Source: Escherichia coli
GTDB lineage: Bacteria > Pseudomonadota > Gammaproteobacteria > Enterobacterales > Enterobacteriaceae
Direction: 5' to 3' (one strand)
DNA: 64,000 nucleotides
NCBI RefSeq assembly: GCF_041886205.1
Contig: NZ_CP169029.1
Below are positions 46,151 through 49,480 of the stretch, in pieces. Each line of letters opens with the position of its first letter. The stretch's first letter is position 1. A program made the translations under genes and the position numbers. The notes under the pieces are model-generated. The model made no database searches, was not told where the DNA came from, and worked only from the letters and a program-made list of their open reading frames with translations.

Positions 46151-48155
46151 ACCAGTGTCCTGCATATCTCTTGTGCGTGATAACGGAGTGTAACAAAAGG
46201 GACAGGCATCAAGGGATTTTTTGTTATTACAGCCGTCGGGTGGCGTTGTACACCTGATCACTGTTTCTGCGTTTTATGAAAAAATAAAATTATGTATCGA
46301 TATATAAATATCGTAAATAGCTGGTTATAAATACGTCTTTAGTTCATCAGCACTAAAACTCAGGCTTTGGCTGATTGCATTAATAGCAGCATAATATGTT
46401 TCTACAGTTTTATAATGCTTATGATGAATGGCTATATGAACAGCTGACATGTTGTCATGATTTTTAGCGGCCAATAGTGTAAATAACTGATGTTGACTAA
46501 AAGAATGTTTTTTGCAAAAGCACCCAGCGTCGATATATAAGATAACACGACGTCTTCATTACCCTTGCTCATGGCGATGTATAATGCAGGGGTTCCCTGT
46601 GCTGTAGCTCCTTTTAATAAATCCATGATGTTAGCTTTGCTCAACTTGTATTTAAAGGCGATGCCATTAATTTTAGAGAGGAACCGTGTGACACACAAAG
46701 GGTGATTATTTTCCATTGCGGCGTATAATCCTGGCTCACCATCATGTATTTTCATGGCTAAAATACTCATCACCAGTTTTTTGTTTAAAAGCTCTTGTGC
46801 TATTGGAGTGGTTAATGCATTCAGAAAGATATCGATTATTTCATCGAATCCATACAACATGGAGATATAAAGTCCAGGTGTTTCGTTAGCACTTTTAGTT
46901 TGCAGTAATTTAACCAGATTATCTTCATGAATGATGTGATTATCTACCAGTGACTGAATTTCTTGCATAAATATTTTCACGTTGTCAGTATGTCCGTTCA
47001 TCATAGCCAAAAATAAAGCAGGTGTACCAACGCTATTCTGCGCAGTTATTATTTCAATGATTTCTTTTTCAGGGAGTATGGGCAACTGTTTGAATAATGT
47101 AATAAGCTGTTGAGTCTGGCCTGTAGCCATTATTAACAACATTGCCGATGGATGTATAGGGGCAAATGGCATTCGTGATGCAATACCCGCGAAAATAGCC
47201 CCTGGAACTCCCACAGGTAATAGGGGCAGAATAGCAATTGCACAGTTGCGAACATATCTATCAGCCCAGGTCTGAGCATCGGGACCTGAACTGATGAACT
47301 TATCAAGCGAGAGAAAGCCCCGTGCTGTCCTGTGGGTGTCTCTGACGGCAACGTTGGTATCGTTCGGGTCGTAAACGGACACAACATAATTTAATTGTCC
47401 ATACACTGACTGCTTTATTCGTAGCCTTACTGACAAAGTATGATTGTCTATATATAAAATCGCGGACATATGACTGACATTGTTTGCCATCATTCGACAA
47501 AAGAAAATATCTAAAGCGAAGCCAAAATCCTTACTCGCGATAACGCGACTCCCTGCAGGAGGATGGCGAAGTAATGCTCTGAACTCCGCGTCCCGGACTA
47601 AGGGGACATGCTGCTGTATGGATTCAACGGAGGAGTAATGTTTAATCAGGTTGACTTTGCCTTTTCCATTTCTCAATGAATCAAGGGCGTATTGCAATGA
47701 CAGATGGCGACAAAAAATAGCGTCAGAAGGAGATTGCAAAAAACATGCACTACCATTGAGATTTACTGTTGGGTGTATGGTTTTTTCTCTATGGATTTTT
47801 TTAGACAGTTTCATACAATGGTTACGATCTTCAGCAGTTAACTGTTCCTGTTCAATATAATCCAGTATGCTTCGCAAATGGTTAGCTTTAATAGGCGTGG
47901 TTTCCAGTAATAAGGAAATGATTTCTTTTTTATAGTGTAATGTAATGAGTATATTTTCTGCATGGATGGGTGAAGTGGCAAAGTTAATGGTAAAAAGGGC
48001 AGTGGAATAACAATTTTGTGATATTTTTCGACAGTTTGCGGTAAATTCCTGAGTAACACAGTATGACAGCATCGAACTTAAGTCAGAGGTATCAAGTAGG
48101 GTGATGAGCTGGCGCGCAAATTTATTAATAGGCTCTGATGGGTAATGACTCCAAC

Positions 48156-48659
48156 TTATTGATAGTGTTTTATGTTCAGATAATGCCCGATGACTTTGTC
48201 ATGCAGCTCCACCGATTTTGAGAACGACAGCGACTTCCGTCCCAGCCGTGCCAGGTGCTGTCTCAGATTCAGGTTATGCCGCTCAATTCGCTGCGTATAT
48301 CGCTTGCTGATTACGTGCAGCTTTCCCTTCAGGCGGGATTCATACAGCGGCCAGCCATCCGTCATCCATATCACCACGTCAAAGGGTGACAGCAGGCTCA
48401 TAAGACGCCCCAGCGTCGCCATAGTGCGTTCACCGAATACGTGCGCAACAACCGTCTTCCGGAGCCTGTCATACGCGTAAAACAGCCAGCGCTGGCGCGA
48501 TTTAGCCCCGACATAGCCCCACTGTTCGTCCATTTCCGCGCAGACGATGACGTCACTGCCCGGCTGTATGCGCGAGGTTACCGACTGCGGCCTGAGTTTT
48601 TTAAATGGCGGAAAATCGTGTTGAGGCCAACGCCCATAATGCGGGCGGTTGCCCGGCAT
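48156..48659 (-). CDS. insB: IS1 InsB frame (expressed as InsAB' transposase via -1 frameshift)
   Basis: ORF track 48156..48659; the A6C slippery motif (ttaaaaaactc) is present at the insA/insB junction. Confidence 0.93.
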
Positions 48660-48853
48660 CCAACGCCATTCATGGCCATATCAATGATTTTCTGGTGCGT
48701 ACCGGGTTGAGAAGCGGTGTAAGTGAACTGCAGTTGCCATGTTTTACGGCAGTGAGAGCAGAGATAGCGCTGATGTCCGGCGGTGCTTTTGCCGTTACGC
48801 ACCACCCCGTCAGTAGCTGAACAGGAGGGACAGCTGATAGAAACAGAAGCCAC
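48578..48853 (-). CDS. insA: IS1 InsA (transposition repressor), 91 aa
   Basis: ORF track 48578..48853; [22 protein letters not shown] zinc-finger N-terminus. Confidence 0.95.
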
Positions 48854-49480
48854 TGGAGCACCTCAAAAACACCATCATACACTAAATCAGTAAGTTGGCA
48901 GCATCACCGCTCTGATGAAGGTGTTGGTATGTCGCTATCGATGTGCAATCTATGAGGAGACTTATAATGAGTTCTGATAATGATATCGTTTTGACTCATA
49001 ATCTATTCGCCTTATATATATCTGGAGGTTTTGAGGATGATGATTAATTATTATCGCCAGAACGAAATGTGCACGAAAAATTGTTATAAGAATTGTGTCA
49101 CTTTTATCATTGTGATATGACCACTTCGTCATTAATCTCATGAGCGTTTAAAATACTACCGCCAAATCACGCAACGAACTTTGCTGGATTCAGTTTATGC
49201 TGCTGTAAATCCGCTCGCAGTAAACCTTTCAGACGCACCGTGATGTTATCAGTGGTTCTTTAAGCGTTTTGCTGGTGTACTCACTACAAACGAATTGCGA
49301 ATCGAATCAATGTGAAACGGAAAGGTACAATCTCCCTTTTTTTAGTGTTAACATCGCTCAACCGGGTGGAAGGTGAGAGGTTAATGTCTTTCATTTGTGT
49401 ACCTGATTGCGAACCAATTTAGCATTTGTTGGCTAGATGGTTTCGCAATGAACTGTTAATAAACAAATTTTTCTTTGTAT

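Follow-up and report, generated by a model that had tools for sequence, protein, structure and literature searches.

How did a complete copy of the insertion sequence (IS) IS1 come to lie within the 5′ end of arpB, upstream of the divergent gene thrS, and does its presence there affect either neighbour? The question arises in a window of 64,000 nt of Escherichia coli DNA (contig NZ_CP169029.1, assembly GCF_041886205.1), the whole stretch analysed here, in which a preliminary sequence-only reading had drawn attention to the insertion. We are highly confident that the locus records a single, recent and simple transposition, by which an intact IS1B-like copy inserted in the AT-rich 5′ portion of an arpB gene (espL1) that was already frameshifted.

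The identity of the element follows from its ends, its target duplication and its coding content. Both ends match the degenerate pattern of IS1 termini, GGTRATG...CCAACTTAYTGAT, with 0 mismatches, and form imperfect inverted repeats of ~23 bp as in other members of the family: GGTAATGACTCCAACTTATTGAT at 48141-48163 (plus strand) and GGTGATGCTGCCAACTTACTGAT at 48886-48908 (minus strand). The element lies in minus orientation, with the inverted repeat right (IRR) as its left end and the inverted repeat left (IRL) as its right end. Elsewhere in the window the pattern recurs at the termini of a second IS1 copy (60614-60636, plus; 61359-61381, minus), and it was found in 0 of 100 shuffled sequences. 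On either side stands a perfect direct repeat, GCTCTGATG, of the 9 bp typical of IS1; two fixed positions would agree over 9 bp by chance with a probability of ~4e-6. The two overlapping frames of the family, insA and insB′, are both present, with a predicted junction at an A6C slippery motif (IS1 nt 307-313, window ~48596-48602), and the conceptual 232-aa InsAB′ product scores 243.8 bits against the NCBIfam profile NF033558 (IS1 family transposase; cut-off 100 bits), covering positions 1-199 of 199. The boundaries, orientation and flanking repeat proposed by the sequence-only reading are thus borne out by the ends, the 768-bp length and the coding content. With ends and coding capacity intact, this copy appears complete and potentially active.

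Near identity to reference isoforms further supports the assignment. Over 768 nt the element shows 5 mismatches to K-12 IS1B/IS1C, 6 to IS1A, 7 to IS1D and 74 to IS1F. With K-12 IS1B/IS1C, which the Prokaryotic Genome Annotation Pipeline (PGAP) labels 'IS1-like element IS1B family transposase', it shares the length of 768 bp, the terminal repeats, the A6C site and the 9-bp duplication; InsA is identical and InsB is one residue apart (L for Q). It differs in 5 nt and in occupying a site at which an IS1 is absent from 5,426 complete E. coli genomes, our comparison set, which leaves draft assemblies and Shigella outside. No 100%-identical copy of the element was found in that set, the top match (99.9%, 1 nt different) occurring in widespread copies annotated as IS1B family. 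Between the second IS1 of the window and the arpB copy, 26 of 768 positions differ, mostly clustered in nt 500-720, and the two had been correctly recognised as distinct isoforms.

The empty site can be reconstructed precisely. Removal of IS1 together with one repeat copy yields the allele of the genome wlxctx60 over 46200-49560, with one substitution (47283) and 0 gaps, and leaves a minus-strand arpB frame open for 596 codons from the ATG at 48997-48999. This ATG is the start of both K-12 arpB and the espL1 annotated by PGAP; in genomes without the IS, 524 bp separate it from the thrS ATG. In the window itself, the frame upstream of the Met at 48072 stays open across 48141 into IS1. A continuous frame across the junction up to Met 48997-48999 had been proposed from the sequence alone; the reconstruction reads through, and comparison with IS-free genomes, where the proposal was open to contradiction, gave that very allele in wlxctx60, with the one polymorphism and no gaps. 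Frame and duplication likewise agree with an insertion close to the start of arpB. The proposed distance of ~27 codons is too short: the duplicated target corresponds to nt 83-91 of the arpB coding sequence, with 30 complete codons preceding IS1 and codons 28-31 interrupted. The in-frame stop said to precede the Met directly is present but one codon removed, the order being TAG (49003-49005)-ATT-ATG. Beyond its 30 codons the stump reads CGG-TGA (Arg, stop) inside IRL, predicting a peptide of 31 aa.

The age of the insertion was evaluated by searching the 5,426 genomes with 120-bp queries centred on each IS1 junction (of the two 30-nt junction sequences, one is TAATAGGCTCTGATGGGTAATGACTCCAAC), using BLAST and the best 40 pieces per record, among which a full-length junction match should not be hidden, as it outscores matches to the IS only. 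No contiguous match to either junction was found in these genomes; all matches covering at least 80% of a query consisted of two pieces spanning more than 120 bp, corresponding to an IS1 nearby and not at the same site. The 24 kb to the left of IS1 are 100.0% identical to wlxctx60 and 6EVA (next best genomes, 99.1%), the 11,705 bp to its right differ from wlxctx60 by 1 nt, and ~38.5 kb aligned within window positions 24000-64000 contain 3 substitutions relative to wlxctx60. Both wlxctx60 and 6EVA, the nearest relatives, are without the arpB IS1. Judged by these searches and alignments, the insertion is recent and, within the set, private.

The interrupted gene encodes an effector-like protein, and its decay was already under way. 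The arpB remainder in the window holds two open reading frames (ORFs), 46432-48072 (a truncated ArpB of 546 aa) and 46325-46474; a premature stop stands at 46432-46434, and the full-length gene ends at 46325. Exact protein look-ups returned no record for the 546-aa ORF or for the 31-aa stump. One base added at 46507 gives a 632-aa ORF ending ...SADELKTYL, and K-12 carries one extra T (A on the coding strand) in this homopolymer run (~46507) relative to the window. The 632-aa reconstruction matches Pfam Toxin_15 (PF07906, ShET2 enterotoxin N-terminal; E = 2.6e-43) over residues 147-396 and Ank_2 weakly, in the domain order of ShET2/EspL proteins; in PGAP annotations the orthologous locus is called "type III secretion system effector EspL1" or "ShET2/EspL2 family", and an NCBIfam scan of the 596-aa reconstructed ArpB returned no family. 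The same -1 lesion, at ~codon 571, is present in IS-free wlxctx60, whose copy PGAP labels 'frameshifted'. The sequence comparison therefore indicates that IS1 is a second hit in a decaying gene, the frameshift being common to IS-free relatives; this pre-existing lesion of the lineage had been overlooked by the sequence-only reading. As a result, the frame in the window is broken twice, by IS1 at codons 28-31 and by the -1 frameshift near codon 571. K-12 arpB (b4494) is the same gene at the equivalent place, divergent from thrS across a spacer of 524 bp and with the same start, and is likewise a pseudogene. Its lesion differs: K-12 has a +1 insertion near window-equivalent 47778 and a full A-run at 46507, whereas the window has the -1 in that run plus IS1. 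In the other strains examined, arpB/espL1 carries frameshifts, internal stops or IS1 insertions, and the variety of lesions by lineage points to repeated, independent decay of an effector-like gene in commensal E. coli. The coordinates of all features are collected in Table 1.

Table 1. Positions of IS1, arpB, thrS and related features in the window, and of IS1 copies of other strains placed at window-equivalent positions
Feature	Position	Strand	Remarks
IS1, complete, IS1B-like isoform, 768 bp	48141..48908	-	IRR 48141-48163, IRL 48886-48908
Target-site duplication, left copy, GCTCTGATG	48132..48140		directly abuts IS1
Target-site duplication, right copy, GCTCTGATG	48909..48917		single copy in wlxctx60 empty-site allele
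insA, 91 aa, intact	48578..48853	-	same as K-12 IS1B InsA
insB frame, 167-aa ORF, intact	48156..48659	-	predicted InsAB′ product via -1 frameshift
arpB/espL1 5′ stump	48918..48999	-	with right repeat copy = 30 codons
arpB/espL1 remainder, ShET2/Toxin_15 + ankyrin-like	46325..48131	-	-1 frameshift in A-run ~46507-46512
arpB-thrS divergent spacer with thrS promoter, leader, operator	48918..49522	+	0 substitutions vs wlxctx60
thrS, intact, 642 aa	49523..51451	+	
Second IS1	60614..61381	+	duplication CGAACCGTT at 60605-60613 and 61382-61390
EC05 IS1	~46953-46963 (window-equivalent)		
PEC240 IS1	~47457-47465 (window-equivalent)		
CD306 IS1	47993-48002 (window-equivalent)		duplication TGCCCTTTT
98201 IS1	49027-49035 (window-equivalent)		duplication CTCAAAACC
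PF9285 IS1	49175-49183 (window-equivalent)		duplication CAAAGTTCG
PEC240 IS1, deletion-associated copy	flanks at 47812 and 49191 (window-equivalent)		

The site belongs to a region that IS1 has entered repeatedly. At least six other IS1 sites occur in arpB or the arpB-thrS spacer of other E. coli genomes. Five copies, one each from strains 98201, PF9285, EC05, CD306 and PEC240, were mapped by BLAST, and four of the five have a 9-bp duplication of their own. These insertions resemble the window copy in element family and in their ~2.2-kb AT-rich target region, and differ from it in target position and duplication, some being accompanied by deletions. In all five mapped copies, as in the window copy, insA and arpB are read in one direction, a possible orientation bias; a second IS1 in PEC240, not mapped by BLAST, is annotated in the opposite orientation. 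Two of the other-strain insertions lie much closer to thrS, at ~332-348 bp from its ATG. The flanks of the window copy are 38-39% GC, compared to 50% for the whole window. Zerbib et al. (1985) are said to have found that IS1 prefers AT-rich targets, and a low-GC region with recurrent IS1 fits such a preference. By this distribution of insertions, the AT-rich arpB/arpB-thrS stretch is a regional hot spot for IS1.

On the other side of the insertion, the control region of thrS appears undisturbed. The thrS ATG at 49523 lies 615 bp from the IS1 end (614 bp between), the distance previously given, and the earlier view that promoter and operator are intact also holds, with 48909-49560 identical to wlxctx60 and two single-nucleotide polymorphisms (SNPs) from K-12. 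The thrS promoter listed by Shimada et al., TCGTCA-17-TAAAAT (PMC3946193), is matched by a promoter-like sequence at 49126-49154, outside IS1. Their arpB-side string, ATGATG-16-TATAAC, occurs with 1 mismatch at 49083-49110 (minus strand), a match to be given little weight as one of equal stringency arose in 14 of 100 shuffles. The 5′ untranslated region (5′UTR) contains the ThrRS operator, beside the ribosome-binding site, and RNA spanning -195 to +65 suffices for studies of its regulation (PMC3858243). An Rfam scan of 45000-54000 returned the Phe leader only, neither the thrS operator nor an IS1 RNA having a curated family; this leader (RF01859, 75 bits) lies at 52817-52941, upstream of pheST as expected.

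Could IS1 itself drive transcription towards thrS? Fusion promoters of IS1 need a correctly spaced -10 element in the immediately adjacent flank (PMC9330008), and none was found at either end: at IRL, 17 bp separate the outward -35-like hexamer TTGGCA (48895-48900) from AAGGTG downstream, which is no -10, and at IRR, 18 bp separate TTGGAG from TATTAA, an unconvincing combination with only 7 of 12 matches. The sole promoter-like site in an IS1 end points inward (48901-48874, minus strand) and corresponds to the insA promoter in IRL, facing away from thrS. A consensus promoter scan of the region, which served only to show that there is no obvious outward site, gave 5 sites compared to 3.2 +/- 1.8 in shuffles, not above expectation. 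The outward promoter activity attributed to the element by the sequence-only reading consequently finds no support here, and the "AT-rich body" that the same reading gave it is contradicted by its composition: at 53.5% GC, IS1 is a GC-rich island between the AT-rich flanks. With no suitable -10 at either end, the suggested effect on thrS-infC-rpmI-rplT is speculation, and an influence of IS1 on thrS is nowhere apparent from the sequence.

Two alternatives were considered. IS1 may have been the primary loss-of-function event, inactivating a working effector gene; such a history would suit the openness of the frame over 596 of 632 codons once IS1 is removed and the position of the Toxin_15 domain upstream of the frameshift. 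We consider it unlikely, given that IS-free relatives already carry the -1 lesion at ~codon 571 as a PGAP pseudogene and that K-12, with a different lesion, and the other strains examined also carry arpB as a pseudogene. Alternatively, the insertion could be adaptive through altered expression of thrS-infC-rpmI-rplT, either by transcription reading out of IS1 or by changed nucleoid-protein binding or topology, the pressure possibly being a drug to which resistance involves the levels of tRNA synthetases, such as mecillinam, avibactam or borrelidin. Precedents exist in drug-selected K-12 mutants, one with an IS2 145-150 bp upstream of thrS (PMC12323667) and one with a SNP in the thrS 5′UTR (PMC13148393); IS1 is able to create fusion promoters (PMC9330008), and it recurs in the arpB-thrS spacer of several genomes. 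The IS2 of the avibactam mutant, for which an effect on thrS was proposed and is plausible, lies far closer to the gene than the present IS1. The IS1 end is more than 400 bp beyond the 5′UTR and operator, its outward -35-like hexamers lack a -10, its IRL promoter is directed away from thrS, and promoter-like sites are not above the shuffle level. Moreover, most of the recurrent insertions lie inside arpB and not near thrS, a distribution that fits the AT-rich preference of IS1 better than selection on thrS. An adaptive origin of this kind is, in our judgement, very improbable.

The second IS1 of the window raises the further possibility that the two copies act as a unit, whether as a 13.2-kb compound transposon or as the borders of an invertible segment. 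They are inverted, 11,705 bp apart, with IRL at both inner ends, and enclose thrS-infC-rpmI-rplT-pheMST-ihfA-btuCED-nlpC and part of ydiV, including the essential translation genes thrS, infC, rpmI, rplT, pheS and pheT; compound transposons flanked by IS1, such as IS1/Tn9, are known (PMC9330008). The hallmarks of a Tn9/Tn1681-like element, a single duplication shared by the outer ends and foreign cargo, are nonetheless missing here. Each copy has its own perfect duplication, GCTCTGATG for one and CGAACCGTT for the other, the isoforms differ as described above, and the DNA between the copies is native to the chromosome and, apart from 1 mismatch, colinear with wlxctx60. The matched but different duplications therefore show two separate insertions and no inversion so far, and a unit of this kind is hardly credible; as a past event, it is largely refuted by the duplications. 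A future inversion by homologous recombination between the copies is possible in principle. The proposal that IS1 at -615, alone or together with the inverted ydiV IS1 11.7 kb away, changes the expression or permits the inversion of thrS-infC-rpmI-rplT-pheST-ihfA and was fixed under selection (for example by antibiotics, with resistance via tRNA-synthetase levels) appears to us highly improbable as well.

The second IS1 interrupts ydiV, which encodes an anti-FlhDC factor, at ~nt 534-542 of 714, and this interruption probably abolishes a motility repressor. In E. coli EC6, an IS1 that differs by 23 nt and belongs to another isoform occupies the identical 9-bp ydiV target in the same orientation, in flanks that differ at 7-9 positions per 500 bp; the same ydiV site has therefore been struck independently. 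A public short-read assembly contig from Logan, SRR28800585_4890, corresponds to window 58604-60642, with 2,039 identical bp, and breaks off after the first 29 bp of the ydiV IS1. It carries the ydiV-IS1 fusion ORF and says nothing about arpB, and the run SRR28800585 may share the strain or clone.

Overall, a simple transposition into a decaying gene accounts for the arpB locus as follows. An IS1B-like element entered the AT-rich 5′ part of arpB in one step, at a site probably chosen through the preference of IS1 for AT-rich DNA, and duplicated its 9-bp target. The insertion would truncate the arpB product to a 31-aa stump, with a polar effect on the rest of the gene, and, being the second lesion of a gene in decay, would be selectively neutral. 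No measurable change in thrS-infC-rpmI-rplT expression would be expected, because IS1 ends 614 bp upstream, beyond promoter and leader, and its IRL promoter faces away. Several considerations weigh against this account. The neutrality of the arpB insertion is something that we infer from sequence as probable, and its uniqueness holds for complete E. coli genomes only. In addition, thrS or antisense transcription may be modestly affected by IS1 in this strain, and the IS2 that arose 145-150 bp upstream of thrS in an avibactam-resistant K-12 mutant (PMC12323667) demonstrates that nearer insertions are selectable.

As a strain-specific IS1 insertion in an already dead gene, the event carries little significance in itself; with arpB already frameshifted, the hit loses most of its functional meaning, and the insertion is ordinary, of an already known kind and probably neutral. 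An effect on expression of the thrS operon, if true, would make it modestly relevant to the study of how IS elements regulate essential translation genes. What the locus does provide is a further data point for the arpB/arpB-thrS region as an IS1 target and an insertion usable as a lineage marker, and the presence of two new IS1 copies within 13 kb on a near-identical background indicates recent IS1 activity in the strain.

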